Source of the DNA: Candidatus Omnitrophota bacterium | GTDB taxonomy: Bacteria > Omnitrophota > Gorgyraeia > 1-14-0-20-64-10 | Assembly (NCBI GenBank): GCA_023248155.1 | Contig: JAHFFE010000007.1 | Location: forward strand, 4,401 to 68,400 | DNA: 64,000 nt | Direction: 5' to 3' | Shown here: one piece after another, positions 3,341-35,734 of the stretch | Numbering within the stretch: the first letter of the stretch is position 1 | Layout of the letters: every line of letters starts with the position of its first letter | Program-made: the position numbers and the translations under genes | Notes under the pieces: generated by a model | Told to the model about the DNA's origin: nothing | The model's database searches: none | The model's input: the letters and a program-made list of their open reading frames with translations, nothing else

Positions 3341-3389
3341 ATAGAACTATTCGGTTCTTGTTAGTCGTGGAACAAATTTATAGGTAATC

Positions 3390-3418
3390 TTGACTTTTTA
3401 AAAGGATTCAGGTATATT
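3390..3418 (+). promoter_or_regulatory. Sigma70-like promoter for the giant-protein array
   Basis: TTGACT (3390..3395), an exact 17-nt spacer, then TATATT (3413..3418). This makes the TTG at 3419 an implausible start codon. Confidence 0.55.
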
Positions 3419-3445
3419 TTGTACAAAGGGGATACCTATAAGAGG

Positions 3446-14382: not shown

Positions 14383-14386
14383 AAAA

Positions 14387-17300: not shown

Positions 17301-20224
17301 ATCGCGTTCTTGCCATTGAGTTGGGAGGCACATTCATACGGGTGGCTTTGGTGGACAATCGTGGTGATGGGAAAATTCTACTGACCGTTCCGGATGCGCA
17401 AATCGCGTTTATCCCGAATGTAGTTCATAGCGACGCATCCCAGAGACAGACGGTTCTGGATCAGATTGCGGCACAGGAACAGGCGCTCCTGAGGGCAGCC
17501 GGAATTGACGCTGCACAAATTGGTAAAAAAGCTGTCAGTTCTCCCGGTATTATCGATCCAAGCGGATTCGTGAACCTTCAATATAACTTGCCGTTTACCG
17601 GACAGAGCCTAGCGCAATTGCTGCAGGCAGATGTCATGAACGACATGGTAGCCGCTGTCTTTTCGGAAGCCACACCGGCAGCTTTTGAAGGGGTGGGCCG
17701 TGTTTTCTATGCGACTATTTCCAGCGGTGTTGGTGCGGCAGATATCGATAAATCAGGTCAGGTAACGAATCGTGAACTCGGAGGGCTTGCAGTACCCGGA
17801 GGCAAGTTGGAAGATTTTGTATCAGGAATCGCATTGGGCAATCTTGCTCGTCAAAAAGTCGAACAGCAGGCTGAAGGGTTTCAGAGGATTCTTCAGTTGG
17901 CGGATGGAGATAAGCAAAAAATTGAGGGAGTAACGGTCGGACTGGCTTTTGCCGAGGGAAATCCGGTTGCCGTTGAATTGGTCAATAACGCGGCTCGAAT
18001 ATTAGCTGATGGAATCGTGAGCATGACTCGTACTGTTGCGGATGGACAGCCTGAGTCTGTCCGATGGATTCTTGGCGGCGGAGTCGGCCAGGGAATCGGC
18101 CAGAGATTCCTCTCTTTGGTAGATGAGCAAGTGCGGAAAAATTTGGGGCCCTCTTCTGACTTGAAAATATTTATCCAGTTGTCTACTCAAAACCCGCAGG
18201 AGCGCGGGTTGGTGGGTGCGGCTCGAAAAACCGCCGCTGGCCAGGAAGAGACCATTACGCTGGAATCGGCCGCGCAGATCGTACGCGGTTGGGATCAACT
18301 GCAGTTGGCTCAGCAACAGGCGGTGGTACAGTCGTTGGCCGATCACGGCTACACGACGGAAAAACATCTCCGCAATAGCGGATTGGTCGTGAACGGATCT
18401 TCGGATCTGCCGGCCAGTTTCGTGGCGTTCCCGCCGGTCGTGGATGGCACGCCGCGGGGAAACGAGCGTGAAAATTTACTGGCGACTGGATTGTCTCCAG
18501 CTGTGTTGCAGAAGCAGGGCGTGATTATCGCTGCGGCAGGGGAAGGGTCCCGTCTTTTGCAGGCCGCAATTGAGCAACAATTGTTGCCGTCCGATGGCGC
18601 CGATATTTACACAAAACCGACAGCTCCGGTCACTCCGGTTCGCGGGCAGTCCACGCTGGGATACCAACTTGAAACTTTGGCCGACATGGCCGCCACGCAC
18701 GGTGTTTCCATGCCGGTTCGCGTGGTTTTGCATCCTGAAGTCGGCCGCAAAGTGGCCGACTGGATCGCGGCCAATCGAAATTTCGGGCTGCAGCATCTGG
18801 AGCTTGTTTTTCAGGGGATGAATCCGGCGCTGGATGAAACGGGGCAGATTGTTTTGCGCGATGATAATACCGTTTCGTTTAATCCGGACGGGACCGGCGG
18901 TGTGGTTCAAGCGGCGTTGGCCAACCGCGGCGAGCAATGGTTTTTGAATCAGCTGGGGCAGGATGGGCGCGTTCAGGTGATCAACGGCGATATGCTGCTT
19001 GAAGCCAACCTGGTTGGATTAGTCGCCGGGGTCGGCGAGACAAAACCGGTGGTAGGCATCGGCTATAGATACCCTCTGGAGAAAGAATCTCCCACAGGTC
19101 CGCACCGGTTCAAACTGGGGACATTCACGGTGTTGAATGAAGGAGGTCGAACGGTTGCAAAAATTGTTGAGTACAAAGAGCGCGGATTGGTAACTGGCAT
19201 GGCGGGTGCCGTTGTAACCGCCGAACAAGCAGGAACACCGATTATAGCCAACAGCGGTGTTTACGCGTTCCCGGTTGCCGGTCTGGCGGCAAAGACCGCT
19301 GATTTGGTTCCGCATCATCAGAAAGATAAAGATGCGGCCGGGGTGGCTGAAAAAGTTCAAAAGGTTGAAAATTTTGCTACCGATATTCCTGCGACATTCT
19401 CGTCTGATCAAGTTGGGATTTTGTCGGTCGATCAGGCTGTTTTAACGCCTGTCAAAGATGCAGCCGCTCTGAAGCAGGTTCGTGACGGGGCCGTTGCTCG
19501 CGAGCGAGCGCGTGCCCAGGCGCTGGGAATTAAATTGTCGGACCGGGCAAGCGTGGAATTTCATCCGGCGTTATTGACGGCGGGTCGGGTTCAAATCGGA
19601 AAAAATGTTCGTGTTGAAGGCAATGTCGGTATTTATTTCGGGCCGAATGGCGTAACGCTTTACAGACAGGCTCAACCGGATAAACCCTGGGAACCGTTTG
19701 CCATGGATCAGACCGAGACTCTCCGGTTTGCGTCTTCCGCCGCCGGCGTAGTCATTCGAATTCCGGACAATACGGTCTTTTCTGAAACAGGCATTACCGC
19801 GGGCGCGGAAGAGCGTGGTCAATTGCCGTCGGCGACGGTGCAGCGCGCGAATGTGGGCGTGGTGGCCGCTACACCACGCGGATTGGCCCTTGGTGTGGCG
19901 ATCCAACAAGGCGTACAGGGTGTGGAAGTGGCGTTCGTGGCTGATAATGAAGCGCAGGCATCGGGATTGGAAGAACGCGGCGTCCGTCGTTCGGCGATCT
20001 TTCTTGCGCCGCAGTATGGGTCGGTTTCAGCGGCTGCCGATGCTGCAACGGAATGGCTTTCAGCGAAAGGTTTCAGCGCACAACCGCTGGGTGTTAATGG
20101 TCCCGTCACAGGCCGGATTGAACTTGTTTTATCGGGATTGGGTATTCAGTTGGCGGCTGGCGCCGAAGAGATTTGGAACAACTTCGTTAACAATGTTACT
20201 GCGGCAATGAGCGCCCAGGCATAA
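14387..20224 (+). CDS. Giant exported protein 3 (1945 aa from ATG 14387) with an ASKHA sugar-kinase-like domain, a UDPGP-family UDP-sugar pyrophosphorylase-like domain and left-handed beta-helix segments
   Basis: The ATG lies 4 nt after the preceding stop. The N-terminus has the TM plus SYALRPLAAGQEE. Kinase motifs: VLAIELGGTFIRVALVD, SSPGIIDP, YATISSGVGAA, ELGGLAV. UDPGP motifs: IIAAAGEGSRL and FNPDGTGGV (UAP1/UGPase-type PDGNGG). Hexapeptide-like runs are present, e.g. GKNVRVEGNVGIYFGPNG. Confidence 0.85.
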   Translation: MKIKFSPVFKRFAGWLAIVSLTLLQAVPSYALRPLAAGQEERTQSSLKQSLRLSAGNATSGFEEIPAEVAAEAELRRWKEDKGTGFFITPQGGRVAIHTNVPGLDVNIFSIDREAQIYSTAVVLGEQTVLKKGAQVYGIVQDAEVHENAVQRGILRTLVSLAEDWNPKFLGAQVPSDPAIMTKISGKEVIKSVLGKGARIETNEVELINTHVDSVDDDNYRTILGLGGMYQNVEIGAGNRHVGQGRIKVMFPTRFEDLVTVMADEGVVQEFAEARIPMGRTYAGDAHGYIEFTGSNGYLWMDGVGTVHEVSNLPSVGVSIGEIFASFDGTLPLKEATIPKLTSKQGSGHWWVGGGAGTISAGAVVIGLHHGAVTETGDLLKASNVTAPAGFVVLQNSVTGIPFPGSHVTGLSQTKQQNPLWVFREHPEVVWGLVYEAWQQAKRVAELRAIQNTEFDKNAYLKQAAIDLAQWPQRMLSTVSALAGQRNRSDVKQQADSLRKQFSMEANTPQLLDQLVEGTTAKTNGYSDAVALARKLWSESPLSKKDAVVRDALKQHVLWSDQDRRFFENGAQSPIVQSSVEKDPTAVVIGSNRLTGNTYLGRGVIVVGSELHDVRVEGVSEADYAAGKRVLVINSRVQRTSVGEGTSLVQVVADGMKLGKNSDFRLSRLERGAVGDQSWASGAYFVNSAVGSKAELKTGSYTFNTTAGNTVIIGGILMESVVGDGYVMNHAGAAGFGVRASNIPVKNETGKLLGTVPNPTNHSDGVLMGDPSKGPDQVFLDGHVMMGAHAWLKTVTDDGELNPVHIGAGSFVKGFVPPGQRVIPLQFFDAAVNGSANPSLVLDRLGPSFIQFLIGYPLRKANPDQAQLVAYLMPTLIREAIAQWDQYGKAMGFSPEQIAAVKAQLSDEHLNSGNWNSVWDPGRSAPEAVQPGLVLQVPLFKTPDNKYAFGGPKPSVDSKKPVVSLESVPVQNRVLAIELGGTFIRVALVDNRGDGKILLTVPDAQIAFIPNVVHSDASQRQTVLDQIAAQEQALLRAAGIDAAQIGKKAVSSPGIIDPSGFVNLQYNLPFTGQSLAQLLQADVMNDMVAAVFSEATPAAFEGVGRVFYATISSGVGAADIDKSGQVTNRELGGLAVPGGKLEDFVSGIALGNLARQKVEQQAEGFQRILQLADGDKQKIEGVTVGLAFAEGNPVAVELVNNAARILADGIVSMTRTVADGQPESVRWILGGGVGQGIGQRFLSLVDEQVRKNLGPSSDLKIFIQLSTQNPQERGLVGAARKTAAGQEETITLESAAQIVRGWDQLQLAQQQAVVQSLADHGYTTEKHLRNSGLVVNGSSDLPASFVAFPPVVDGTPRGNERENLLATGLSPAVLQKQGVIIAAAGEGSRLLQAAIEQQLLPSDGADIYTKPTAPVTPVRGQSTLGYQLETLADMAATHGVSMPVRVVLHPEVGRKVADWIAANRNFGLQHLELVFQGMNPALDETGQIVLRDDNTVSFNPDGTGGVVQAALANRGEQWFLNQLGQDGRVQVINGDMLLEANLVGLVAGVGETKPVVGIGYRYPLEKESPTGPHRFKLGTFTVLNEGGRTVAKIVEYKERGLVTGMAGAVVTAEQAGTPIIANSGVYAFPVAGLAAKTADLVPHHQKDKDAAGVAEKVQKVENFATDIPATFSSDQVGILSVDQAVLTPVKDAAALKQVRDGAVARERARAQALGIKLSDRASVEFHPALLTAGRVQIGKNVRVEGNVGIYFGPNGVTLYRQAQPDKPWEPFAMDQTETLRFASSAAGVVIRIPDNTVFSETGITAGAEERGQLPSATVQRANVGVVAATPRGLALGVAIQQGVQGVEVAFVADNEAQASGLEERGVRRSAIFLAPQYGSVSAAADAATEWLSAKGFSAQPLGVNGPVTGRIELVLSGLGIQLAAGAEEIWNNFVNNVTAAMSAQA

Positions 20225-20229: not shown

Positions 20230-23200
20230 ATGAATTTAAATCCAAAAAAAATCATCAGCGGCCTTATTGTAGGCACTTTCTTTTTCTCCCAGGTTACGCC
20301 CAGCTACGCGCTGCGCGTTCAGCAGCCAGTCGGCGGCGAAGCCGCTTCGGGGCTGGAAGAGAGACTGATCAGCCGTCCATCGCAAGGTTTTGCGACGCGC
20401 GTTGGCGCTGTGCGCGGTGCGGTTCAGACGGCCCGCCGCTCGGTAGGTGCCAAGCAGGCCTCTGTTGCCTGGAACCTTAAAGACGGGCAATTGAGCCCGA
20501 TTGCGTGGGCGTCGGGTCCGGCACTCCCGAATGCGACTACCGTGGTTCCCGCCGTTTTGTCGCGCGCCGAGCAGGGACTTAAATGGTTGTATGGAAAACG
20601 GTCTTCGGTTGCTGTTGTTGAAAACTCTCTAAGGAACGATTTATTAGGCGATTCGGTCTCCGTTGAGTTGCGTGCCAATCATGGCATGACGCTCGATTTT
20701 GATCGCGGAGACAATGCAGTTCGCTTGGATACGACAATTGCCGAAGAATTGTTCGATTCTACCGATATCGATCAGAACGGTCTTTCGGTTTTATACGGAA
20801 TCGGCTTTTTTTATCAACTGCAGTTGGTGGCTGGTCGTTCTCCTCGGGAAGCGGCGCATCTGACGCTGGCACTCTATCAAAATATTTCCGATACTGAACG
20901 GGCTGCGTTGCTTTCTGTTTTAAGATCTCCGCAAATCGATCATGGCAACCAATGGGCTCGCTTCTTTGAGGAAGGATCTAAGCCGGCGGACTATCGCGGG
21001 ATTGATTCGTTGGAACTTGAAACGCGGCTGGAAACCGAAACCAACACGGACACTCGAACAGCGCTTGAAGCAGTTGTCAATCATCGCGACAAATTGGTTT
21101 CTTGGTTGCTGGGCCAACAGTTGATCGACCTTCCGTACGATCGGACAAAAATGCTCGAAGCGATGACGGCCTTTGAAACCAATGTGGATGCCGGTCGTTC
21201 TTTGGCATTTGAGGCGGTCAAAGGTTTCGACCGTAAAGTTGAACAGGCGAATGCCGATCGAGTCGGCACCATGATTCGCGAAGAGTGGCTTCCGGATAAT
21301 ATGCCATACCCGACACTGCTGGCTGGTCGTTACAGCCGCGCGTTTGGCAACCAGGGCGGGTTGGCAGCCAATGCCGTCTATGTGGAAGCTAATCCGGGAA
21401 TCCGTGATTTAGCCCAGTTGTTGGAAACAGAGGCAAAAGCAGAACAGTTGCTGGCTGAATTAAAAGCATTGGAGAGCAGCGTTCCTGCGCGTGCCTTGCC
21501 GAAATTTAGAAAAGCAGAACAAAGAATCGAAGCATTACTGGTTCAGTTGGGGCCCGGTATTGCGCGCATCCGTTTGCTTGTTTCAGGTCAGGCGGCTGCG
21601 TTGACGCAATATAAAGGAGCACTGCAGCAGATTCGTGAAAATATCACGATCTTTTACCGCGAAGCAGCAAGAGTCATTGAGTCGGCCCGTGACACGGCCA
21701 ATGCGGCCGGCGGCAAAGGAATCCTGCGACGGTTAACACAGAATGTTTCAAAACCATTTCAAGCCGCACAAGAAAAAGTGTCCGAATTTGCGGCCCAGAG
21801 CGGTCGTTTGGCAACAATTACCAATGATTTGGAAACCGCAGCGCTTCAGGCACCGTCACAGCCGGCTGCTTTTAGTGTTTTGTTGCAGCGGCCATCACCG
21901 ACCGGCTCCATCAACTTCAATGCCAACGAATTAGTCGAAAAACCAGAACAGGAACCGGCACTGCGCGAATTGGCCCGATTGGGAGGCCAGAATAGCTATA
22001 CCAGCCCCAGCTATGACTGGGTTTCTGAAGCGACCGATATCATTGAAGCCGCTCCGTTGTTTATTTATGAGCGGACCGTTGTACTGGAAGATGGCAAATC
22101 CGTCACTGTTTTTGAAGTCGACCAGGAAGGTCTCGAGCAGACAGTCCGGCAGATGGCCGATTACTGGGCGCTGAACATTGATAAAACAATCGATTCAGAA
22201 CATCTGGCATTAGCCCGCGAAATTGTTGTTGCCGCCGATCCTGTTCTTTCAGGGCGGGCCGGTCAATTAACAGGGCAGGGCATATCAGTAGAAGCGGCAC
22301 ATCGGCAGGTAATTTATGAAGCGTCTGAGAAGCGTCCTGAACTGCTGCGGCTGGTGGGAACCACGGCTGCCTGGCTGGCCGCGGAATTTGACCGGCGGAT
22401 TACGGAGGTTGAGAAACATACCGAAGCGGAATGGCAGAAAGATCATTTTATCGACCGGATGGAGTCATTGCGCGATGTCGTGGTTACGGGGCGCTCTCCA
22501 TCTGAGTTACTGTCATTGGCTCAGGATGCGATTGGGAGTCATACGGCCGAGGTAGACCGTTTGACACCATTGGCATTACGCCGTCGTAGACCGATGCCGG
22601 CATTTCATTTGTTAACGACGCAAGCGCCTGGCCTCGTGCAAGGTTTCTTTCAAGCGGTTCTTGAAGAAGAGATGGCGTTGCGCAATGTGGCCAAAGCCAA
22701 AGGGTTGGATGATGAGGTTCGCGATCGCGTAAAACGGTACCAGCAGAGAATCGCCGAATTGGGCCGCACCGTCATTCAGGAATTTGGTTATCAGCCGATT
22801 CTGGAACAAAAGAAATCAGAACTTCCGGCCAGTATGGCGGATGACGAGAAGGAACGGCAGGCGATTCAACGGACGATTGCCGATCATATGCCGTTGCAGC
22901 AGGAACTGGCAAAATTGGCAGTGCTGGTTGAGTTTGCGGAAGCCGAAGGAAAACCGATGGATCCGAGCCACCCCGATCCTTCGCAGGTGGAAGAAATTAT
23001 TTCCGGACAAACCGTCGAGTTGACTGCCGAGGCGGTTCGGGCCGTTTGGCAGCGCAACCAGCTGGATCCTGAGCTGGCTAATAAGGTGATAGCGCTTGAT
23101 TCGACGCAGACTGATGAAGCGGCGATTGCTCAGGCGATTCATCAAACACCGATCTATGAAGAAGAACTGCAAAGCAATATCCGCTGGCTGGCGCGTCAGC

Positions 23201-26200
23201 GCGCAATTGACCAATTATCCAGGCAGCACGCCGAGCTTTATCTTGCGGAGCAGGCCAAATCAAATGGTATTAACCCTCCAAATTGGTACAGAAATCATAC
23301 CTCGTTGGCACAAACGACGGCTCGCCGCGAAGCGATTGCCGCGCATAACCTGCAAGGGTTGTTGATGGATCCGCGCTACGCCTATTCCAACGGTGCGTTG
23401 AAAGAAACCAGCGAAGGCCGGCTTCGTCCGACCGGTGCGCGTAAACGGTACCATCTGATTTACGGTCCCAGCCGCGTGAACTTGGGCGCAGGCGAGCGCG
23501 ATTCGGTTGAGGTTTGGCCGCAGTGGGTAGGCGTTACCGATCCGTTGGCGGCCGCACATGCGCTGGCGTTTTATCAGTTGATCAACTTCAATCCTGAAGT
23601 CCGCACGATTATGGAAGCGGAGAACCTGAAAGTTTCTGAGAATCAGTGGACCGCAATGGTGCGCGCGGTGCGCAATGCTGAAGCCTATTTCGTTGGACGG
23701 CTGGGTGTAGGCGATATTGAAGATCTGGCGCATCAATTCAACCGGCGTAATGGTCTGCCCGGCGCCTGGCTGAAAGACGGAGAATCGTACGCGGCCGGAC
23801 CGACCACCGGCTACTGCATTCCAAAAGACCTCTTATTCAAAATGTTCGTTGCGACGGCACTCGATGGCCGCAAGATGACGCAGATCGGTGTTCCGAGACA
23901 TCTGCAAGCCGGTGTCTTTAAAATGATGTCGGAAATTTTAGCGGCTCAAGCTAATTTCGACACGGTCACCGACTGGGAAGCCTGGGCTGCGCAAACAATG
24001 CTTTCCGAAAGTTCTCTTCGAGAACGGTTCGGCGCAGCGGATGGCGGGAAATTAAACCAGCTATTCAGCCAATATGTTTCTGTTACCGGCGGCGTGACGG
24101 CTTTCCATCTGACGAAAATGCTTCAGATTCTTCAGATGGTTGGCGTTCCCAGCCCGACATTAGTCCCAGGCAAAAATCTGCACGACGCGCTTTGGGCGCA
24201 ATGGGCCGACTTGAAGTTGACGCTGGCTGCCGAGCAGGTGAACCGCTCTTTGATTTTCCCGATGACGCGCGAGATTCCCGATGGTGTTGCCGAAGCCCGC
24301 CGCTTGAACCCGGGCGTGAATATTGCTGCTCCGGAACAAGCCTCAATTCATATGTTTGGCACCTACAAAGGCGATGATGTCGAGGCTCCGCCGCCCGATG
24401 TCCGGTTCTCCTGGACGATGCGTGCATTTATGATTTTATCCGGCTATGGAAAAGAAGTAGCGCTTTCCCTGGATGAAGACGGACAACTTTTGGCGCGGTT
24501 AAGCTGGGATGGTTTTCTTCCAGATTCCACGGATGAGGAAGATATTAAAGTGGCTCGGTTTGTGGCGCAGAAATTTGCAGGTAAAGATCAATTCGGGGCT
24601 GAAGATTTCGCGTTAGTTGAAAAATTAAAACAAGATTTTCCGCATCATACGACGGTTGGCAACATCACGATTACGGTGGTTCCGGGCGTTTCGGCCGAAG
24701 ACTTGCTCGGTTTTAACGCCGAGACAAAATTATTGTTGGGCGATCGCGCCGCCGCAGTGCGCGAACTGCTTATCTCGAAGGGTATTAACACCGGCCAGAT
24801 TACCGCGAATGCTGTGTTGCGCCATGAATTTCCGGCAGAATGGATTCCGTTGCTTGATCTTGACGCCAAAGAACAAACTGCTTTGAAAGAGGCGGTTGCC
24901 GGCGGAATTCATCCGTTGGTATTGCAGCAGCGCGGACCGGGTACCGATTTCGAGCAAGATTTGCAGGCGCAGGATGTTGCCGTTTTCTCGGTCACGCATC
25001 CGGGAATTGTAACGATGGATCCGTCTAAATTGCGCGACTTGATGCAATTGGGCCGCCCGAATGGGTTACAGAGTGCGTTGGTGGCGCATGATATGGTGGC
25101 GCAGGGCCGGCACCGCGTCTGGTTTGACCGCGATGTGATGCTTTGGTACGCGGCTGCGCGCGGCATTGATGCTGAAGGTAATCCGATTCAAAATTGGTCT
25201 GACCGTGATCAGCAAGGCCGCAAGGCTGTTTATAAAGCGTTCGGTTATGGTGAAGATACCTACCGGCCGCTTCTGGGTACCGATCTGCGGCAGGAAACAG
25301 CCCGGCAGGAACGCCGCGCCGCCGAATTGTTTGAATTGGTCCGGAGGGTCGCCGATTCTGATTTAACCACGCAAGTCACTGCCATCACAGCTTTGCAACA
25401 GCAACTTGATGAACTACGGACGCAACTGCGTACCGAAGCCGAGCTGGCGATCAAATACGAGCAGGCAATGCTTTCATTCCGCCGCAACAAACCGCGTGAT
25501 CAGATCATCCGCGGCTCGCTGGTGGCGCTGGCGTCCGGAAAACCGGTTGAACAATTTGATTTCGTGGATTGGCTTGCAGTCGGCGGCATTTATCTGCTGA
25601 ACGGCGCGCCGCAAGCCCGGCAGGATGAGGTTCGTTCTGTTTTTGACCGGGCCGGCCAAAAGATGGCTTCCGGCTTGGAAGAAAATCCGAATGTCGCGTT
25701 GTTAATCCGTCCGCGCCTGGAGCCGACTTCATTGAGCCGTGCAGAAAGAAAAGGGGAAATGTTCTCCGTCAAAGCGACTGAAACTTTCGCCGAAAAAGCG
25801 GTTGCCCGCCGCAAGGGTTTGGCGCTGCAAGCCGCGCGCCAGTCAGCGCTGCAGGCACGCGAAGAAGGTTTTCGTTCGATTGAGCCGGTTAATTCCGTGG
25901 ATGGAATTCTGCCTGCACTCAATGAAGCGCGCGCTGCCCTCAATGGAATGACTGAGCAGGTAGCGAATCGATCCGGGAATGCGGCGCAGATTCACCGCCA
26001 GAGCGGGCAGGTGATGGGAACTGCGGTAGCGGTACTGAATCGTTTGAATCAGGAATTAACACCGGGACCAGACAGGGAAGAAGTCGCCAAGAAAATTCAG
26101 GCGCTTTCCAAGGGCCGCGAACTGGATGAGAAAGCATGGAGTTCGTTTGGCGGCACCTATGAAGACGCGGGCGTACTGGCCCGGTTTTTTGAGCAGGCCG

Positions 26201-29200
26201 GCCCGAATCGCCGTGAATTGGTGGCGGCCGCGATGGAACTTTTGTATCTGACGATGCTGATCGATAAAACGGCCGAATTTGCCGCATTGCCATCCGACGA
26301 TGTCGATGCTCGCCAACTTTGGCGCGCGCTGTCCGTTTATTACGCCGAAACGCTTGACGACCATTTTTATGAATATAATCCCTGGGCGTTTGACCCGAAG
26401 CGCGGTTCAGCGTTTGTCGATTATTATGATGATGTTGGCGTCCTTAAACCGGAACATCGTGAAGAGCTGTACGGTCTTTCGTGGGCGCATCATCGCGCCG
26501 CTTATTCCTATATCCGCGCGCTGGTTCGCGCAAAAACCGATTACGGCAAACTTCCAAAAGAGGAGTATAACGCGTTGCTCGGCGATGTAACGCTCGGCGC
26601 GACTCCCGATCAAGATCAATTAGCCGTTCAGGCAATCGGCGCCGGAGCGCCCGGTCCCAATGAGTTGTTTTGGCGCGCCTATGGCCAGTACCGTGAAATT
26701 GCTGTGATGCAGAATGACGGGTTCGGGGTGCCTGTGGTGTTTGACCAGTTTGATCCCAATACTCCGGAAGTGATCGACGCGCAGCACCGGCTGAACTTCG
26801 CGTTTGTTTCGCCGGTAGGGCGGACCCATTATTCGCGCGCGCTGATGTCGGCCGCGCAGATGGGATCGAACATTTTTATTACGCGTAACGCCGTCGTGAC
26901 CGAAGTTGCCGGTTCCAATGGAAAAGTCGCCACGATCTCCGACGCGCAGTTTTGGTTGACCGAAGCGCAGTACCGCGAAGCACTGATTCGTTTCCGCGGC
27001 ATGGCCCCCAGCGATGCCGATGCGCAGATCGCGCAAGACCGTGCAGCCGGGCGGATTACGCCGCTCGGGATTCGCGTAGCGGCCCGCTTTACGCAACCGG
27101 TGGTTATTTCGGCCGGAGTGTATCTGCACCATCATTCGATTGAGCCGGAATGGATTGCCGCCGGTTATCCGGCCACCGACAAATCGCCGGTGGTTTATGA
27201 AATCAGTTACGACAAGGCGCTCTATCCGAAAATTTACAATCCGGCCGCTGATACAGGCGTTAACCTTCCGCCTGAGATCGATTGGATGCAGACCGATACC
27301 GACGATAGACCCGAAACTGATGTAAAGCAAGATATCGCCAAAATGCTAAGGCCGTTTGCCGAAACGCATGGCATTATCGTTGCCAAAGGTTCTTCTGAGT
27401 CGGGCGCGCGCAACTTCCGGCGGTTCGATTTCTTCAATGACAACGGTTTTAACGAACAGGTTCTTTCGGAAGCGGTCGATTTTATTTATGAAGTGTCGAA
27501 GGGTCAGAATGTCACGATCCAGCGCGCTATCATCGTTACGCCGATCGCCTGGATGGACCCCTCGGGCGTGAACGATTTTGTCAGCCGCCAGATCCGCGAT
27601 CATGGCGTGCCGGCGAATATTCACCGCTATCCGAAAGACTGGGTTTACAGCACGCAGAGAATTATTATGTCGGCCGGTATGCCGAAAAATCTGAATGATC
27701 TTGATAATCCTGCCAACTGGGAAGCGTCGCATCCGATCAGCTTAAGTAGTTTGCAGGTGGCGACCAATGTAGGGCGGCAGGGAACGCTGGAACTGCTTTC
27801 TCCCGATTTAATCCGTCCGGAATTTCGCGATCAGTTTATCCAGGGATTGCAGGATGCGGGGCGCCGTTCAATGGCAGCGATGGCCAAATATGCCCGGCAA
27901 TATTGGCATGAAGTTTATTTGCCGGCTTATCGCGCCGCGCATGATGGAGCCGATCCGCCCGAATTCGATGCGACCGGTGTTCCCTATTGGTGGCCGCGGT
28001 ATCTAATGCTCGATTTTCTGGCCGAGCCGGTTTTTTACCGTAATGGAGTGGAAGCGGTCGGCGCCCGTGTGGTTGATGTGATTCCCGGTGACGCCGCGCG
28101 CAATGTTTCGGCCCGTTTCGTTTTGCAGGATGCCGACGGCAACCGGTTCGATGGCGAAATCCGCGGGTTTAAATATTGGCTGCTGGAACCGAATGTCGGC
28201 ATCGGATTGTGGCCGAATCTTTGGAAGCGGGAAGAACTTCACGAAAGAGCGCGCGCCAAAGCGGATGGCAATCGTCCGATGGATTGGAACCAGGTTGGCG
28301 TCAGCGACCGGGTTGTGCTTGGCAATTATTTGGCGGCCGGCGAAGCGTTTATGAAAGCAAAATTCGGTGGTGATCATTATGGTCCGGGCGGCCCGCGCCG
28401 CGATCCTCCGCCGATGGGTCCTACTTCTGCGGACATATCGCCGCCAGCAACGGCAGTCACTTTCGTGCAACCGCTTGTTACGGATGTTACTTCTCTACAG
28501 CGTGTCGAAGAATTGAAGTTGGATCAAGATTTAAGCCACCCGCTTGCTCCGGTGATCGAAATTCAGCAGGAACCGGCGTCCGCTGAGCAGTTGAGGGCGT
28601 TATTACCGCATGCGCAGACATTCGCTGTCGTTACCGGTAAGCGGACGCTGATGAACCACCATGTCTATCCGTTTGAGGTAGGTAAGGGAACTGCGGCGGT
28701 TAATGTGATTGGTGTGAACGACGAATGGTTGACTGCGGATGGAAAAGCCACTCGGCTGATGGTCTACAATCCGGAGACCGGGCGTTATCTGGAGTTTCCT
28801 CTTGAGCAGCCGGTCGCCATTAACTCTGCGTTCATTGTTGAGTTGCCGCAGAGCCGCGAAGTAGAACGTCATCAGGAGTTAACGCAGCTGCTTGCTTCCA
28901 ATGGCGTGCGTGTTGTTAACCAGGCCGGTGAAGCACAGCGGCATATGGATGATAAAGCCTGGTTACGGCATGAGAGGATTCCTGAGGTGTTGGTTCCCAC
29001 CGCGATGGTTGTGGAGAAAAGCTCCTCTACTGGGGAGGCCACACTAGGGATCATCGCACGGGGAAGTCCTGCCGGAATCATCATTCAGCCTCGGTCTGGA
29101 ACGACCGAAGGTGAAGGAGTCGCATGGTTTTCCGCCGCGGATACCGATGGACAGTTGGCGCATTTGCGGAATTTATTGAAGACCGGCGATGCGATGGTCT

Positions 29201-31983
29201 CTGCTTTCCGCGGTAATGTAACGGTGGGTGGCCGGCCGCTGGTACTGCGTTTCAACTCTATTTCAGATCAGGTGATCTCCGCGTCGGCAGTGGTGGGTCA
29301 GCCTGATTCCCGAGTCGCTTCTCTTGGGCAAGGCGGTGAAAATATTCCGCTGGCTGAAGCGCTTACTCAATTAACAGGACCAGATAACGCATCCGTTGCA
29401 ATCACTGCCGCTGATTGGCAGCAAATTCAGCAATCGGCGCAGAATGTTGCCGATGTGCTCAGAACACCGGTGGCCGGCATCGATATGGTACTTGAAACAA
29501 CACCGGATGGTCATATTCGCGGTGTTTTGATTGAAGCCAATGCCCGTCCCGGCACACTGATCTTGGGCGAGACGGTCCAGTTCCCAGCATCGGATGCCGT
29601 TGAGGATGCATCCATTGAAAGCAGTCCGGCCGCCCCGGTCGGCCCGGCATTTTGGACTGCTCTCGGAATTTCCCAAACAACCACGCGACCAACGCCCTCT
29701 TCAATCACTACTTTGTCACAATGGATCGATCTGTTGCGGAGTGGTCGAACCGATTGGATGACACCGCACTATACGGGAGATTTTGAAGCCCATCGGGTGA
29801 TTTTGGATGAATGGATCAGCCAAGCGCTGAAACGGGAAGTCCCGGGAACATCCGGCACTCCGTTGTTTGATCCGAATCGTCCGATCGCTATAACGCGAAC
29901 TCCCGGCCGGTTTCTGTTTCCGGTGACAGGCCGGCATCTGGATTATTTGGGCGGACAGGGCGGATCGATCGGATCACCTACCCAACAGGAAACGGTGCTC
30001 ATTGCGCAGGAAGTGGAAGGGTTAAATGGACAGATTGAAATTTATCAGATAGTTGCCCCTGATCCGTCTGTTGCCGAAGTCTATCCCAATAATGGATTGG
30101 GCGCCAGAACGATTGATCTAAATAGCCCCTTTGTAAATCCAGACCGGCCGATTCGGACGCTGGCCGATTGGGATACCTGGGCCAAAACGGTGACTGATCA
30201 GAGAAGAGTCGCCCGCGCCCCGGATACCAAAGTTAATTACGCGGACGATTTGGCCGCGGCAATCATCGCGTTTGCCCGCACCGAGCTCGGAGATCCTTCA
30301 GGTAAAATCCGCGCTTATCTGGACCGGATTGCCAGTGAAGGTAAGGGTTTTCGGTTTGCGCTGGCCAGCAACCTACCGACTGGCGGCGGATTGAGTTCCT
30401 CGTCGGCGGTGGCGATTGGATTCGCGCAGACATTGGCCCAGCTGGCTGGCGTTCAGTTGACACATGATCAACTGGTTAATTTTGGTTATGCCGAACGATT
30501 TTACGCCGGTACGCAGGGTGGCTTAAAAGACCACGCCCATCTTACCGGCGATACGGGATATCTTGGGGTTGCTCCTACGCGCACCATCGCGACGATGAGT
30601 CCAATTCCAGGCGCGTCGGTGTTGTTGCTCGATTCCGGCGTTTCGCGCGATAGAGCAATAGCCCTTTCTCCCAAACTAGGCAGCAAGGGCAATGACGAAC
30701 AGAATATTAAAGGTCGTACGGCTACTGGCTATGCATTGGTCAATCTCTTGCTGAGGCATATTCATCCTGAGTTAACAGCCCGGATTGCACCCGATACGCA
30801 AAATCCGGATGGTTATCTTCGCAATCTGGTTCCCGGTAATCCGGGTGGAATGTCGGTACAGGAAGTTTACAAATTGCTGGGCGAAATTCCGGCAGAAGGA
30901 CTCACCCGTAAACAAATGTATGAATTAATGCCGGAATTTAAGTCTGATCTTGATCGTTTATTTGCCAAGGGTGAGGAGCCGCCTGAGCCGTACGCGCTGC
31001 GTGAAATGGCATTGTTTTTCTTTGCCGAAGAATCGCGCAACTGGGAAGTGGTTCGCGTGCTTAACGCTTTGAAAGCGGATGAGATTAATTCGGATCAGGC
31101 GTTTGAACGGTTGATTGAAGTCGGACGCGCCGCGCACAATGGCGACCGCGTCACCCGTTATGAAATTACGCCAGGTGATCAGGGTTCTTTGAATGTCAAC
31201 GCGATCGGTTGGGATTGGCATCTTTCCGATCCGACGCTCGATCAGTATATCGCGAACTCTGATTCCAACGAAGCCGCGCTTTGGCGCCAGGCCGGCCGGC
31301 TGGAACGATCGATTGAACCGCTCGACCGGCTGGTGGATCTGGTTGAATATTATAACCAGCAGCATGGTGGAAATTCCGATGTTGCTGTCGTGATGGGCGC
31401 CGGTTTGGGTGGGACCGTCGGCGTTTTGGCCCGTTCTGATTCTGTCGATGGATTAACGCAATTTCTGAACGAGCATTATTACCAGCCGTTAGGCTTGACC
31501 CATGGACCGGTTATCCGCGCGCAAGCGGGTAAGGGTGCCAGTGTATTGGTTTCCCCAACGGCCGGTCTTGAGGAATCGGCTACCAAGGTTGCTGTTCCTT
31601 CGGCTAGCCGGACAGTGTTCAATGGTCTTGGCGTGGTGGCCGGACCGACCACCACCGGATTGCAGTGGGGGTTGGCCATTGCGCGCAATGGTAAACAGCG
31701 CGACGGCCGGCCGGTGCCGGTAGTTTTTCTGGTCAATAACGATGAGCAGCGCGCGCAGTTGACGAAGGCCGGTTTCGGCGATTTTATTTTCACAAATGAA
31801 TCGGAAGCCATCGCGGCGATTACCGGTTATGGCGTTAAACCGGTTCTGGTTGGTGTGGGTCAATCGGTGCCTGAATCGGTATTCGTCTTGTTTGCCGAGT
31901 TATTCGGCATCGAACTTTCTAATGTGCAGGCCGATTTTTGGCAGGGCGCTTATGCTTCCGCGGCGGTCGATGTCAACGCGTAA
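20230..31983 (+). CDS. Giant exported protein 4 (3917 aa) with a UDP-glucose/GDP-mannose dehydrogenase-like catalytic motif and a C-terminal GHMP-kinase-like domain
   Basis: It starts 5 nt after the preceding stop. The N-terminus has the TM plus SYALRVQQPVGGEAASGLEE. GPTTGYCIPKDLLFKMF matches the UDPGDH catalytic-Cys motif GGSCxPKD. GFRFALASNLPTGGGLSSSSAVAIG matches the GHMP kinase PxGSGLGSSAA motif. Confidence 0.85.
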   Translation: MNLNPKKIISGLIVGTFFFSQVTPSYALRVQQPVGGEAASGLEERLISRPSQGFATRVGAVRGAVQTARRSVGAKQASVAWNLKDGQLSPIAWASGPALPNATTVVPAVLSRAEQGLKWLYGKRSSVAVVENSLRNDLLGDSVSVELRANHGMTLDFDRGDNAVRLDTTIAEELFDSTDIDQNGLSVLYGIGFFYQLQLVAGRSPREAAHLTLALYQNISDTERAALLSVLRSPQIDHGNQWARFFEEGSKPADYRGIDSLELETRLETETNTDTRTALEAVVNHRDKLVSWLLGQQLIDLPYDRTKMLEAMTAFETNVDAGRSLAFEAVKGFDRKVEQANADRVGTMIREEWLPDNMPYPTLLAGRYSRAFGNQGGLAANAVYVEANPGIRDLAQLLETEAKAEQLLAELKALESSVPARALPKFRKAEQRIEALLVQLGPGIARIRLLVSGQAAALTQYKGALQQIRENITIFYREAARVIESARDTANAAGGKGILRRLTQNVSKPFQAAQEKVSEFAAQSGRLATITNDLETAALQAPSQPAAFSVLLQRPSPTGSINFNANELVEKPEQEPALRELARLGGQNSYTSPSYDWVSEATDIIEAAPLFIYERTVVLEDGKSVTVFEVDQEGLEQTVRQMADYWALNIDKTIDSEHLALAREIVVAADPVLSGRAGQLTGQGISVEAAHRQVIYEASEKRPELLRLVGTTAAWLAAEFDRRITEVEKHTEAEWQKDHFIDRMESLRDVVVTGRSPSELLSLAQDAIGSHTAEVDRLTPLALRRRRPMPAFHLLTTQAPGLVQGFFQAVLEEEMALRNVAKAKGLDDEVRDRVKRYQQRIAELGRTVIQEFGYQPILEQKKSELPASMADDEKERQAIQRTIADHMPLQQELAKLAVLVEFAEAEGKPMDPSHPDPSQVEEIISGQTVELTAEAVRAVWQRNQLDPELANKVIALDSTQTDEAAIAQAIHQTPIYEEELQSNIRWLARQRAIDQLSRQHAELYLAEQAKSNGINPPNWYRNHTSLAQTTARREAIAAHNLQGLLMDPRYAYSNGALKETSEGRLRPTGARKRYHLIYGPSRVNLGAGERDSVEVWPQWVGVTDPLAAAHALAFYQLINFNPEVRTIMEAENLKVSENQWTAMVRAVRNAEAYFVGRLGVGDIEDLAHQFNRRNGLPGAWLKDGESYAAGPTTGYCIPKDLLFKMFVATALDGRKMTQIGVPRHLQAGVFKMMSEILAAQANFDTVTDWEAWAAQTMLSESSLRERFGAADGGKLNQLFSQYVSVTGGVTAFHLTKMLQILQMVGVPSPTLVPGKNLHDALWAQWADLKLTLAAEQVNRSLIFPMTREIPDGVAEARRLNPGVNIAAPEQASIHMFGTYKGDDVEAPPPDVRFSWTMRAFMILSGYGKEVALSLDEDGQLLARLSWDGFLPDSTDEEDIKVARFVAQKFAGKDQFGAEDFALVEKLKQDFPHHTTVGNITITVVPGVSAEDLLGFNAETKLLLGDRAAAVRELLISKGINTGQITANAVLRHEFPAEWIPLLDLDAKEQTALKEAVAGGIHPLVLQQRGPGTDFEQDLQAQDVAVFSVTHPGIVTMDPSKLRDLMQLGRPNGLQSALVAHDMVAQGRHRVWFDRDVMLWYAAARGIDAEGNPIQNWSDRDQQGRKAVYKAFGYGEDTYRPLLGTDLRQETARQERRAAELFELVRRVADSDLTTQVTAITALQQQLDELRTQLRTEAELAIKYEQAMLSFRRNKPRDQIIRGSLVALASGKPVEQFDFVDWLAVGGIYLLNGAPQARQDEVRSVFDRAGQKMASGLEENPNVALLIRPRLEPTSLSRAERKGEMFSVKATETFAEKAVARRKGLALQAARQSALQAREEGFRSIEPVNSVDGILPALNEARAALNGMTEQVANRSGNAAQIHRQSGQVMGTAVAVLNRLNQELTPGPDREEVAKKIQALSKGRELDEKAWSSFGGTYEDAGVLARFFEQAGPNRRELVAAAMELLYLTMLIDKTAEFAALPSDDVDARQLWRALSVYYAETLDDHFYEYNPWAFDPKRGSAFVDYYDDVGVLKPEHREELYGLSWAHHRAAYSYIRALVRAKTDYGKLPKEEYNALLGDVTLGATPDQDQLAVQAIGAGAPGPNELFWRAYGQYREIAVMQNDGFGVPVVFDQFDPNTPEVIDAQHRLNFAFVSPVGRTHYSRALMSAAQMGSNIFITRNAVVTEVAGSNGKVATISDAQFWLTEAQYREALIRFRGMAPSDADAQIAQDRAAGRITPLGIRVAARFTQPVVISAGVYLHHHSIEPEWIAAGYPATDKSPVVYEISYDKALYPKIYNPAADTGVNLPPEIDWMQTDTDDRPETDVKQDIAKMLRPFAETHGIIVAKGSSESGARNFRRFDFFNDNGFNEQVLSEAVDFIYEVSKGQNVTIQRAIIVTPIAWMDPSGVNDFVSRQIRDHGVPANIHRYPKDWVYSTQRIIMSAGMPKNLNDLDNPANWEASHPISLSSLQVATNVGRQGTLELLSPDLIRPEFRDQFIQGLQDAGRRSMAAMAKYARQYWHEVYLPAYRAAHDGADPPEFDATGVPYWWPRYLMLDFLAEPVFYRNGVEAVGARVVDVIPGDAARNVSARFVLQDADGNRFDGEIRGFKYWLLEPNVGIGLWPNLWKREELHERARAKADGNRPMDWNQVGVSDRVVLGNYLAAGEAFMKAKFGGDHYGPGGPRRDPPPMGPTSADISPPATAVTFVQPLVTDVTSLQRVEELKLDQDLSHPLAPVIEIQQEPASAEQLRALLPHAQTFAVVTGKRTLMNHHVYPFEVGKGTAAVNVIGVNDEWLTADGKATRLMVYNPETGRYLEFPLEQPVAINSAFIVELPQSREVERHQELTQLLASNGVRVVNQAGEAQRHMDDKAWLRHERIPEVLVPTAMVVEKSSSTGEATLGIIARGSPAGIIIQPRSGTTEGEGVAWFSAADTDGQLAHLRNLLKTGDAMVSAFRGNVTVGGRPLVLRFNSISDQVISASAVVGQPDSRVASLGQGGENIPLAEALTQLTGPDNASVAITAADWQQIQQSAQNVADVLRTPVAGIDMVLETTPDGHIRGVLIEANARPGTLILGETVQFPASDAVEDASIESSPAAPVGPAFWTALGISQTTTRPTPSSITTLSQWIDLLRSGRTDWMTPHYTGDFEAHRVILDEWISQALKREVPGTSGTPLFDPNRPIAITRTPGRFLFPVTGRHLDYLGGQGGSIGSPTQQETVLIAQEVEGLNGQIEIYQIVAPDPSVAEVYPNNGLGARTIDLNSPFVNPDRPIRTLADWDTWAKTVTDQRRVARAPDTKVNYADDLAAAIIAFARTELGDPSGKIRAYLDRIASEGKGFRFALASNLPTGGGLSSSSAVAIGFAQTLAQLAGVQLTHDQLVNFGYAERFYAGTQGGLKDHAHLTGDTGYLGVAPTRTIATMSPIPGASVLLLDSGVSRDRAIALSPKLGSKGNDEQNIKGRTATGYALVNLLLRHIHPELTARIAPDTQNPDGYLRNLVPGNPGGMSVQEVYKLLGEIPAEGLTRKQMYELMPEFKSDLDRLFAKGEEPPEPYALREMALFFFAEESRNWEVVRVLNALKADEINSDQAFERLIEVGRAAHNGDRVTRYEITPGDQGSLNVNAIGWDWHLSDPTLDQYIANSDSNEAALWRQAGRLERSIEPLDRLVDLVEYYNQQHGGNSDVAVVMGAGLGGTVGVLARSDSVDGLTQFLNEHYYQPLGLTHGPVIRAQAGKGASVLVSPTAGLEESATKVAVPSASRTVFNGLGVVAGPTTTGLQWGLAIARNGKQRDGRPVPVVFLVNNDEQRAQLTKAGFGDFIFTNESEAIAAITGYGVKPVLVGVGQSVPESVFVLFAELFGIELSNVQADFWQGAYASAAVDVNA

Positions 31984-34900: not shown

Positions 34901-35734
34901 CTGCGCGAGATCGATATGGATGCGTATGATCATTTGGTTGGAACCGGTAATGCGGCGCTGGGCCGGCTGTTAAAATTGGCGGAAGGTGATCTGTCGCAAA
35001 TTGAGCAGGGCGATCAATCTGCGCTAGGTGTTCGAACTCCCCAGCTGCAGGTACAAATTAAAATGGCTATTAGGCAGGTTCAGCAGGCATTGGATTCTTT
35101 GCCGGGAAGCCGTCCTTCCGCCGGCACCGTTTCTTCGTCGGGGCATACGGCCGCGCAGTTATTGGAAGGGGTTGCGCGGTTGTCGCAAAATCTCGATGGC
35201 CGCTGGCGGATGCGCAACCACACGTTTACTGAAGTCGAATGGCGTTACCAGGCGTACGATGCGTCCCGCCGCGCGCGCGATACCTGGGTTCCTGTCTCGA
35301 AACCCGATTCATTGCCGATTCCGCTGCCGGCCGGAGCATTGTCCGAAGGGAAATATCTTTTTATCGCCCCGAGCGTGGCTGTTCCCGAACTTTGGGCTGG
35401 TTTGGGCCGGCTGAAGCCGTCTTCCGGAGAAACAATCGGTCTGGTTATTTTTGGCCGAGATGCCGGTCATCTGGAAACTATTCGGGCAGAGATGATGGGG
35501 TATTCATTTGCGTCATCGGCGAAATTCATCGATCTATCTCAGTACAGCGACGATTTGATGCGGGCGGTTGCGGGTCAGGTGGCTGTGCTGGGCAGTAATG
35601 ATGCATTTGAATACCGGCTGATCCGAACATTCAGCGATCTCGGTGTTATTGGGAAGTTCCTCCAAATTCCGGATATTTCGTTCCGTGCCTGGGAGCGGCA
35701 AATTCAGAACGCCGGGTTCGAAGAATATGTATAA
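31970..35734 (+). CDS. Giant exported protein 5 (1254 aa from ATG 31970) with a left-handed beta-helix (hexapeptide acyltransferase-like) region
   Basis: The ATG overlaps the last 14 nt of gene 4. The N-terminus is MSTRNTLFQKISGAVLIGAFLFVNAAPGYALRATQPVVGSGAEELRQ. An LbH-like run IGPGTVLIGAATSVGEGTRLLRVIADNTVIGSETHLTAV...IGDGTVGSYVGISEGSVVGKNN is present. The upstream in-frame ATGs at 31796 and 31952 would add a non-hydrophobic extension, so 31970 is preferred. Confidence 0.8.
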   Translation: MSTRNTLFQKISGAVLIGAFLFVNAAPGYALRATQPVVGSGAEELRQKLSVNNSVPAFAGQEETPPSPIMGHRLVETGIPGYRRVVYFLQDGSSWNGGVVRSDVPENAIASTAYLAPYSFAEGAAARLEDGAQVADGSAVINSAIRSGAKLNGSVAENALVHPAAWVSYSALGPAFDDDSWSYSLATERDSELSVRNHLAFFARNTYRVEVGYNSSVRGSVFQDSAVGPDSDIFGSALVISRWGEQTRMDGGVKSWLAVGAQGHADIAGVQHRPDGTEIPAALEIAEAAYQGLPAEQYPGTQIHEHHVGYTEAVITNSVPLVGYTAGELTVTPYLVPPITLFGDYTIFSIFAGSPNPQGIKTDGRPTPGVITRLTGGPGEQSSQHGRIISDPLSILPGFSNVIGRLLGFPELDNPLALLTEPEVTHLGPLSAVGADAQLGLNGLEGWGQILPAEARGQLSRGSGIAPWVFLYSPEVLFSLMGQLASGLPANDQSRYDDLPQRLLESGLALSRWMLDQEQAKDAQANAQVIERLERYIAGFSALIESEAWAGKWVQDGELRHPEQWQRYGDRWETSSLNLANMHRQIHPFADSVPYTQVPLRYLLAVPDGVDRPDWSQWTGYYLKPEDLQTSPPTPLDQLEQVDESLKEWRIIGQDAKFYYTVEGGRIGREVDLKMIHPSALIGPGTVLIGAATSVGEGTRLLRVIADNTVIGSETHLTAVYSRSTVFGNGIKLTWAKTTRLVRIGDGTVGSYVGISEGSVVGKNNTFEPFALVINSTTGPNNVIGISLVNSQVQPGFMGRHLSTAVHNLQQQSVRFQVNGKNYDLKAASLNVAGGLFVQGNDKTPVRLSSAYPLSLTTIDPGNGQKFAVGAFSVLKNQIRLDDGQILPLTFHAFNHVASTDPLFAQPGRHNDSIGGALEFPGIFLRNFIYRTKKGIYDDLAAQGLTREQILVHPRMLQSDYMIEATIVSALVQVINQLREIDMDAYDHLVGTGNAALGRLLKLAEGDLSQIEQGDQSALGVRTPQLQVQIKMAIRQVQQALDSLPGSRPSAGTVSSSGHTAAQLLEGVARLSQNLDGRWRMRNHTFTEVEWRYQAYDASRRARDTWVPVSKPDSLPIPLPAGALSEGKYLFIAPSVAVPELWAGLGRLKPSSGETIGLVIFGRDAGHLETIRAEMMGYSFASSAKFIDLSQYSDDLMRAVAGQVAVLGSNDAFEYRLIRTFSDLGVIGKFLQIPDISFRAWERQIQNAGFEEYV

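Follow-up and report, generated by a model that had tools for sequence, protein, structure and literature searches.

An insertion-expanded nucleotide-sugar-dehydrogenase-like module in a giant protein of Candidatus Omnitrophota

The window analysed here is a stretch of 64,000 nucleotides of Candidatus Omnitrophota DNA (contig JAHFFE010000007.1, positions 4,401 to 68,400 of the forward strand), in which one giant open reading frame (ORF) encodes a module, at amino acids (aa) ~545-1650, that is almost certainly homologous to the nucleotide-sugar dehydrogenase superfamily (UDP-glucose/GDP-mannose dehydrogenases). Judged by its alignments, the module is a very divergent but genuine member of this superfamily in the evolutionary sense, and the canonical enzymes closest to it in profile comparisons are the UDP-N-acetyl-mannosamine/glucosamine dehydrogenases of the WecC/WbpA type. 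It is a form of the superfamily that current curated models miss, and the combination of an intact catalytic set with no fingerprint for binding nicotinamide adenine dinucleotide (NAD) is unusual. To our minds the whole is best explained, with a chance a little better than even, as a diverged WecC/WbpA-type homologue that would bind a UDP-sugar, use Cys1196 as nucleophile and hold a remodelled NAD(P) site.

A sequence-only reading of the window had pointed to a catalytic-Cys motif of the UDP-glucose/GDP-mannose dehydrogenase family in the giant protein, and this is borne out as a matter of homology and not of chance. The motif, GPTTGYCIPKDLLFKMFVATALDG, is the translation of 23797-23868 on the + strand, in frame with the ORF at 20230-31983, and reads G1194-Y-C1196-I-P-K1199-D1200, with the Asp at +4 from the Cys (residue 1196, codon 23815-23817). 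The pattern G.C[ILVFM]PKD has this single occurrence in the six-frame translation of the whole 64-kb window, and homologous giant ORFs of 4050-5018 aa are found at four loci in metagenome-assembled genomes (MAGs).

20230..31983, + strand: giant ORF with the motif, 3917 aa (ORF list and translation)
21862..25179, + strand: insertion-expanded nucleotide-sugar-dehydrogenase-like module, aa ~545-1650 (family profile matches in the same order over three domains, shuffles, hhalign)
23815..23817, + strand: codon of Cys1196, which corresponds to Cys276, the nucleophile in human UGDH catalysis (alignment, conserved in 70/70)

Homology and domain layout of the module

Searches of Pfam and NCBIfam with the whole 3917-aa protein, and with pieces of 500-1000 aa, gave no dehydrogenase match; for the whole protein, a GHMP kinase (aa 3367-3436, E 5e-11) and a weak match to an ATP-grasp of the YheC/D type were all that was returned. 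The 153-aa fragment at 23440-23900 taken alone matches PF00984, the central domain UDPG_MGDP_dh, at E 0.054, and the 286-aa segment at 23392-24249 (aa 1055-1340) matches the NCBIfam model TIGR03026, 'nucleotide sugar dehydrogenase', at E 5.8e-5. TIGR03026 is matched by 17 of the 19 central segments of family members, with the UDP-N-acetylmannosamine dehydrogenases as the next most frequent NCBIfam models, and PF00984 is matched in 9 of 26 relatives. The span 23440-23900 (aa 1071-1224), singled out by the sequence-only reading, is the stretch that best matches the dehydrogenases. The reading had proposed a search for the three dehydrogenase domain models, which succeeded in part: PF00984 (on the fragment, sub-threshold) and TIGR03026 were found, whereas the models of the N-terminal (PF03721) and C-terminal (PF03720) domains went undetected.

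The connection to canonical enzymes is provided by profiles. An exhaustive HMMER search, in which a profile built from aa 560-1650 and four close relatives was run against 1.84 billion representatives, returned 118 clusters, nearly all of them very large proteins or pieces of such, with some reaching 5-8 thousand residues (kaa). Among the matches is a canonical dehydrogenase of 394 aa (P0120, E 1.1e-4) with PF03721 (5e-21) and PF00984 (1e-12), and two of the relatives, P0057 (48 bits) and P0074 (39 bits), lie above the Pfam cut-off for PF00984 and have the canonical 'PG.GYGGFCVPKD'. A 26-sequence family profile then matches P0131, annotated as a 'UDP-N-acetyl-D-mannosaminuronic acid dehydrogenase', at E 2.4e-17 and P0132, a 'UDP-N-acetyl-D-glucosamine dehydrogenase', at E 1.4e-9 (both E-values refer to a database of 5.8 billion sequences); both proteins have PF03721, PF00984 and PF03720. 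When the family alignment was compared with four canonical enzymes by hhalign, the reported probability was 98.75% (E 1.5e-16). A PDB sequence search with a 5-sequence profile gave no match, nor did tblastn against plasmids.

For the mapping of domains, a family hidden Markov model (HMM) built without any canonical sequence was searched against P0131 and P0132, with the following matches:

HMM 68-103, aa ~551-585: P0131 29-64, beta2 and the following 'LN.G.sPf.E..L' (4.7 bits; 7.5 alone)
HMM 93-128, aa ~575-610: P0132 51-83, to beta4 (0.1 bits; 3.0 alone)
HMM 566-695, aa 1071-1206: P0132 142-270 and P0131 172-276, beta6 and central domain (50 and 67.6 bits)
HMM 811-887, aa 1331-1410: P0132 282-350, 'vlGvaYKadigDmReSpa' (12 bits; 12-15 range)
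HMM 1046-1083, aa 1571-1606: P0131 399-434, last strand-helix of the C-terminal domain (6.4 bits; 6-9 range)

The central domain also matches Escherichia coli Ugd with 17 bits, Ugd residues 179-257 corresponding to aa ~1118-1200. As a control, the N- and C-terminal thirds of P0131 and P0132 were shuffled, and in four of four cases none of 300 shuffles reached the real score; spliced hhalign runs return the same domain order, weakly (P 0.02-0.07). On these matches, counterparts of all three canonical domains appear to be present, in the canonical order. The module takes up ~1,100 aa where a normal enzyme has ~420, the additional length being due to four insertions (aa ~640-780, ~830-1060, ~1207-1330 and ~1412-1570), and is laid out as follows:

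21865..21891, + strand: beta2-like strand AAFSVLLQR (Q553, R554), with no beta1-GxGxxG-alphaA before it (aligns with 'VTGVQRRSE' of P0131)
22036..22077, + strand: beta4-like DIIEAAPLFIYERT (aligns with 'DADAILIALP' of P0132; by hhalign, with the 'aDyviiaTP' region of Ugd)
22147..22569, + strand: insertion A, aa ~640-780, predicted with fair confidence to be helical (helices in AlphaFold2 models, pLDDT 70-90, where pLDDT is the predicted local distance difference test score)
22597..22671, + strand: beta5-like PAFHLLTTQAPGLVQGFFQAVLEEE (T796/T797, counterpart of the canonical S-T), which resembles LLIIESTVAPGTTKHVVQPILERE of P0131, a pairing made by eye and from a weak hhalign match
22717..23409, + strand: insertion B, aa ~830-1060, likewise predicted to be helical, no canonical counterpart (AlphaFold2 helices, pLDDT 75-95)
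23440..23847, + strand: beta6 and central catalytic/dimerisation domain, aa 1071-1206 (S1081, K1134, N1138, R1172, G1194, C1196, K1199, D1200)
23848..24219, + strand: insertion C, aa ~1207-1330, conserved in the family (..EWE.WA.., ..FHLTK..), no canonical counterpart (family alignment)
24220..24462, + strand: first part of a UDP-binding-like C-terminal domain, aa 1331-1410, with EQVNR helix and FGTYKGDD...PPDVRFS (family HMM)
24463..24939, + strand: insertion D, aa ~1412-1570, no canonical counterpart
24940..25179, + strand: last part of this C-terminal domain, aa 1571-1650, QAQDVAVFSVTHP...LRDLM...SALVAHD (family HMM)

Insertion A is absent in the distant relatives P0051, P0074 and P0044, where HMM positions 168-294 are skipped.

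A short motif arising by chance in an unrelated protein is a possibility that the failure of the 3917-aa protein alone to reach the Pfam threshold, and the empty PDB sequence search, might seem to favour. It is refuted by the profile search (E 2.4e-17 and 1.4e-9), by the module's own match to TIGR03026 and by the shuffle-controlled matches of three domains in order, and its probability is negligible. Since the profile E-values to canonical enzymes, the E-value of the module's own TIGR03026 match and the same-order domain matches all point one way, the homology goes beyond chance.

Residues retained in the family

Conservation was counted in ~58-82 relatives, extending down to ~25% identity. 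Within the Cys motif, G1194, C1196 and K1199 are each present in 70 of 70 relatives, and residue 1200 is Asp in 54 and Glu in 16; Cys1196 aligns with the catalytic Cys of Ugd, P0131 and P0132. The Lys-x3-Asn element is read as AENLK1134-VSE-N1138 and aligns with 'AEAIKLFAN' of Ugd, with N1138 kept in 71 of 72 sequences and K1134 invariant in alignments A4 and A5. Arg1172 is also among the retained nucleotide-sugar and catalytic residues. Further upstream, T796/T797 are found in 82 of 82 relatives, Q553 in 59 and R554 in 65 of 69, and E606 and P609 in 69 and 70 of 73, respectively. In the C-terminal domain, Y1379/K1380 (58/58) and D1390/R1392 (56/58) form the arrangement Y1379-K1380...D1390-x-R1392-x-S1394, the residues of which match the C-terminal UDP-binding motif 'G.aFK..tdD.R.S'. 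By these counts, purifying selection acts strongly on the residues for substrate and catalysis.

In human UGDH, the aligned counterparts are Cys276, Asp280, Lys220, Asn224 and Thr131. Of the residues of the human enzyme, Cys276 is the nucleophile, Lys220 the general base, Asp280 acts with a water molecule, and Glu161 is the base for hydrolysis (PMC3265891).

Sub-branches of the family, which include P0029, P0036 and P0043 as well as P0038, P0046 and P0060, vary the Cys motif systematically (GYGGYCVPKD, GGFCVPKE, SGFCQPKD, AGYCLTKE), with the Cys always kept.

Candidate functions and the missing cofactor loop

If the module is a diverged homologue of the WecC/WbpA type, it would have retained the binding of a UDP-(N-acetyl)hexose, and Cys1196 would act as a covalent nucleophile at C6, leading to thiohemiacetal and thioester intermediates as in UGDH. 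The hydride acceptors would come from a remodelled NAD(P) site with the conserved beta2 'QR', beta4, beta5 and beta6 elements; these remnants of the cofactor domain are conserved as 'QR', 'EA.PLFI', 'LTT..PG' and 'Y.PSRV', respectively. The sugar-metabolism context, consisting of a GHMP kinase in the same protein and of neighbouring GlmS-like, ROK, hexapeptide and GH94 domains, also speaks for such a role. We consider it likely that the module is a catalytically active Cys-dependent nucleotide-sugar enzyme, while a classical two-fold NAD(P)+-dependent oxidation to UDP-uronic acid has a chance somewhat short of even. The step from a UDP-sugar to the UDP-uronic acid, as the sequence-only reading had suggested, is to be regarded as possible.

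The canonical enzymes that give the best profile matches are the UDP-N-acetyl-D-mannosamine/-glucosamine 6-dehydrogenases (WecC, Cap5O and WbpA type; NF008286, NF040825; P0131, P0132). With these, the module shares the central domain, K-x3-N, G-x-C-x-P-K-D, the Arg of 'N.R', the C-terminal 'YK..D.R.S' and the terminal strand-helix, and with P0131 in particular it shares the beta2 'QR.S' and the 13-residue spacing to 'LN..sPf'. It differs from them in the lack of beta1-GxGxxG-alphaA, in the change of 'PER' to 'PSR' (Ser1081), in the four insertions of ~120-230 aa, in being part of a protein of 2.4-5.6 kaa, rather than a free-standing enzyme of ~420-460 aa, and in scores below the curated thresholds.

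Several observations weigh against the explanation that we prefer. In none of ~60 relatives is beta2 preceded by GxGxxG or by another conserved loop rich in Gly, and neither PF03721 nor PF03720 was ever detected, in the 3917-aa protein or in 26 relatives. The Glu of thioester hydrolysis is replaced by Ser1081, which is invariant in the family ('SPERV' of P0132 corresponds to 'GPS1081RV'). Curated cut-offs are far from reached, with 14 as against 25.4 bits for PF00984 and 22 as against 189.8 bits for TIGR03026. Near the active site, the two AlphaFold models are of low quality (pLDDT <50), and a Foldseek search of the PDB found no significant match, the best matches to UDP-glucose dehydrogenase (UDPGDH) structures having E 0.4-2; the recurrence of UDPGDH structures among the weak local matches was not counted as evidence for the fold. 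Finally, the N-terminal leader of the giant protein, going by its sequence, suggests export, to a place where NAD+ and UDP-sugars would normally be unavailable. As for the models themselves, one of aa 560-1650 from 5 sequences was unusable (pLDDT 42), and one of aa 501-1700 from 21 sequences, including two canonical ones, reached pLDDT 60 and was confident only in the helical insertions.

The sequence-only reading had proposed to look upstream of the motif for the NAD-binding GxGxxG, and no conserved Gly-rich loop was found there in the 3917-aa protein or in its relatives. The conserved region starts at 'P..aAFsVLLQR.SptG', and upstream of this beta2-like strand the relatives are variable and helical. 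The starting segment aligns with VTGVQRRSERSG of P0131, which is beta2, and the spacing from Q to N is 13 residues in both; P0131 has its own GMGYVG 20 residues before VTGVQRRSERSG. A reading of 'LLQRPSPTGS' as a degenerate beta1/Gly loop was rejected, as it aligns with 'GVQRRSERSG' (beta2) of P0131, where GxGxxG stands 20 residues earlier. A relocated Gly loop was sought in the rest of the conserved core (aa 1-545 and 1650-2760), where none is conserved. Because no NAD-binding glycine loop can be recognised, ordinary dehydrogenase activity is unproven.

In P0131 (residues 25-45), beta2 closes with VTGVQRRSERSG, whereas in most family members the residue at this place is acidic ('V.D'). The common 'QR.S' motif, together with its spacing, suggests that the giant-protein family descends from a P0131-like subgroup, and 'QR.S' in place of an acidic residue possibly indicates a preference for NADP rather than NAD.

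The losses could also mean that the chemistry itself has changed. Here, dinucleotide binding and the hydrolytic Glu would have been given up, with the UDP-sugar pocket and the Cys/Lys/Asn/Asp set kept for an NAD-independent reaction, in which an acyl or aldehyde group derived from the sugar nucleotide would be captured covalently on Cys1196, or a thioester would be passed to a nucleophile other than water, such as an amine. Such a reaction is consistent with the family-wide absence of beta1-GxGxxG-alphaA and with catalytic residues that are invariant nonetheless, and also with ATP-grasp-like motifs (unconfirmed) in the same conserved core. The replacement of Glu by an invariant Ser1081 fits as well; the E161Q variant of human UGDH shows a kcat that is lower by ~600-fold, with slowed hydrolysis and accumulation of the thioester (PMC3265891). 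Against it, there would be no aldehyde or thioester for the Cys without an oxidant, and the strong conservation of the cofactor-domain remnants is hard to explain if the cofactor has been lost. To our knowledge, NAD-independent chemistry of this kind is without precedent, and we regard it as unlikely.

About equally unlikely is a pseudo-enzyme, that is, a non-catalytic unit for UDP-sugar binding or a purely structural one serving dimerisation or as a scaffold. In canonical UDPGDH enzymes, the central domain is the dimerisation domain, which makes a structural role conceivable, and the lack of an NAD fingerprint, the huge helical insertions and the failure to reach the curated family cut-offs point in the same direction. 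Pseudo-enzymes, however, usually lose their catalytic residues, and in this family ~70 relatives keep the Cys, Lys, Asn, Asp/Glu and neighbouring Gly with few exceptions or none.

At the other extreme, the large protein could include, as a fusion, a UDP-glucose 6-dehydrogenase domain that is canonical in every respect, as CIPKD, K-x3-N and, in the C-terminal part, YK..D.R.S might lead one to expect. The module does belong to the superfamily of Ugd/UGDH (PF03721, PF00984 and PF03720) and conserves the counterparts of Cys276, Lys220, Asn224, Asp280 and Thr131. It differs in having Ser as the counterpart of the catalytic Glu161, in the lack of GxGxxG or any NAD fingerprint, in the insertions, and in its size of ~1,100 as opposed to ~420 aa; moreover, PF03721 and PF03720 are undetected and the nearest canonical models are those of UDP-ManNAc dehydrogenases. 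A canonical domain is contradicted by these missing defining features and is very improbable. The likeness to UDP-glucose dehydrogenase that the sequence-only reading had claimed holds at the level of the superfamily, but the nearest canonical enzymes are the UDP-N-acetyl-mannosamine/glucosamine dehydrogenases.

Giant proteins of Omnitrophota with sugar-metabolism enzyme domains have been described (bioRxiv 10.1101/2023.11.21.568195; bioRxiv 10.64898/2026.06.07.730766). The present proteins resemble the 'multi-enzyme metabolic' very long proteins, or Archaeovorins, in that large proteins are tiled with domains of sugar metabolism (ROK, phosphosugar enzymes). Taken together, the four neighbouring giant ORFs of the window carry GHMP, ROK, SIS/GATase, hexapeptide and dehydrogenase-like domains, and Omnitrophota MAGs are a source of related loci. 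Unlike the Archaeovorins, the ORFs of the window, at 1.3-3.9 kaa, fall below the criterion of at least 10 kaa (bioRxiv 10.64898/2026.06.07.730766), and unlike in the very long proteins of Omnitrophota, the enzyme domains themselves are split by long insertions. Neither report mentions a module like UDPGDH ('UDP' occurs 0 times in bioRxiv 10.64898/2026.06.07.730766 and 'dehydrogenase' 0 times in bioRxiv 10.1101/2023.11.21.568195), and no literature that pairs PF00984 with Omnitrophota was found.

If the module is active, it would extend the superfamily to a form missed both by the Pfam/NCBIfam cut-offs and by the two surveys of Omnitrophota giant proteins, and would place a step of the UDP-uronic-acid type within a conserved cluster of giant, leader-bearing proteins whose GlmS-like, ROK, GHMP and hexapeptide domains resemble those of hexosamine metabolism and sugar activation. 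The invariant catalytic Cys/Lys/Asn/Asp, alongside the missing NAD fingerprint and hydrolytic Glu, presents a clear and testable biochemical puzzle. The module also indicates that known enzyme folds, drawn out by long helical insertions, make up part of the 'dark' sequence of giant proteins in bacteria. A more far-reaching proposal, which we hold to be rather improbable, is that the family forms an undescribed branch of the superfamily, which would have given up the classical dinucleotide-binding beta-alpha-beta unit and the hydrolytic Glu but not the covalent Cys machinery. A long-lived thioester or thiohemiacetal of a UDP-sugar derivative on Cys1196 would then be resolved by a non-water nucleophile, or another oxidant would be used, in exported, insertion-expanded giant proteins of host-dependent Omnitrophota-like bacteria.

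The remainder of the giant protein, its neighbours and its relatives

The dehydrogenase-like module sits within a conserved core of ~2,400 aa, to which a C-terminal extension has been added in the 3917-aa protein. Outside the module, the following features were found:

20230..20313, + strand: N-terminal leader, aa 1-28, with basic residues, a hydrophobic stretch and PSYA-LR, signal-peptide- or anchor-like by eye (sequence)
21067..28359, + strand: conserved family core, aa ~280-2710, common to relatives of ~2450-2650 aa (phmmer of the whole protein against relatives)
29269..29559, + strand: weak YheC/D-type ATP-grasp match in the C-terminal extension, aa 3014-3110 (PF14398, E 0.011-0.03, below cut-off)
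30223..31482, + strand: GHMP (galactokinase-like) kinase domain, aa ~3332-3751 (PF00288 E 5e-11; weak PF08544; NCBIfam galactokinase E 1e-9)

At the end of the core, aa ~2330-2700 (window ~27220-28330) contain the ATP-grasp-like motifs K2386..ESG.R, NVGR.G and EPN.G.GLW. An assignment of aa 2330-2700 as an ATP-grasp domain was left as a lead, with a PDB profile search empty and PF14398 matched in only 2 of 8 relatives, at E ~0.1. If the ATP-grasp is real, the dehydrogenase-like module would be paired with a carboxylate-amine ligase.

The four adjacent giant ORFs, of 1.3-3.9 kaa, lie at 5227-14382, 14351-20224, 20230-31983 and 31796-35734. All four begin with a similar leader, composed of basic residues, a hydrophobic stretch of ~15-20 residues, P-[SGA]-[YW]-A-L-R and a Gly/Glu-rich segment ('..GLEE.L..'), which by its composition resembles a signal for export or sorting that all four have in common. 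The leaders, identified in the sequence, are at these positions:

5227-5330: leader of the ORF at 5227-14382
14384-14510: leader of the ORF at 14351-20224
20230-20330, + strand: leader of the ORF at 20230-31983
~31970-32090: leader of the ORF at 31796-35734

In the last of these, the leader begins ~60 codons into the ORF, so that translation probably starts from a Met further on and the apparent 188-nt overlap with the ORF before it probably does not exist.

The ORF at 5227-14382 (3051 aa) has a weak match to the glutamine amidotransferase domain GATase_6 (E 1.7e-5, aa ~728-833) and a match to SIS (E 3e-9, aa ~1914-1961). These are the two domain types of GlmS but are ~1,100 residues apart, and the ORF may, as with the dehydrogenase-like module, represent an enzyme whose parts have been separated by insertions. 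In the case of the ORF at 14351-20224 (1957 aa), the only domain found is that of a sugar kinase of the ROK type (aa ~987-1291, E 4e-9 to 6e-8), with no nucleotidyltransferase domain at E<=0.1; the pyrophosphorylase that the sequence-only reading had placed in this preceding gene ("gene 3") finds no support. The ORF at 31796-35734 (1312 aa) gives matches, each of them short of the curated cut-offs, to hexapeptide/LbH repeats (E 1e-4 to 2e-3) and, faintly, to NUDIX (E 5e-3). The cluster is flanked upstream by a GH94 glycan phosphorylase (797-3217, E 8e-102) and downstream by a subtilase with a fervidolysin-type prodomain (35831-37744), and the gene order g2-g4-g5 recurs in related loci.

The relatives were found in MAGs labelled Omnitrophota or Planctomycetia. 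The closest to the module are the pair at loci L001 and L002 (77% and 66% identity), which are labelled 'uncultured Planctomycetia', followed by the pair at L003 and L004 (64% and 55%) from Candidatus Omnitrophota MAGs; P0028 is also labelled Omnitrophota. The taxonomic labels of the MAGs with L001 and L002, as compared with those with L003 and L004, look inconsistent. A third, word-indexed homologue search with the central-domain alignment returned 3 proteins only and did not deepen the multiple sequence alignment. Two relatives are filed as eukaryotic, P0002 and P0123, namely a hypothetical protein of 'Brachionus plicatilis' (rotifer) and a 2797-aa ORF from an EukProt transcriptome with 52% identity, and these are probably bacterial contaminants or associates of the eukaryotic samples.

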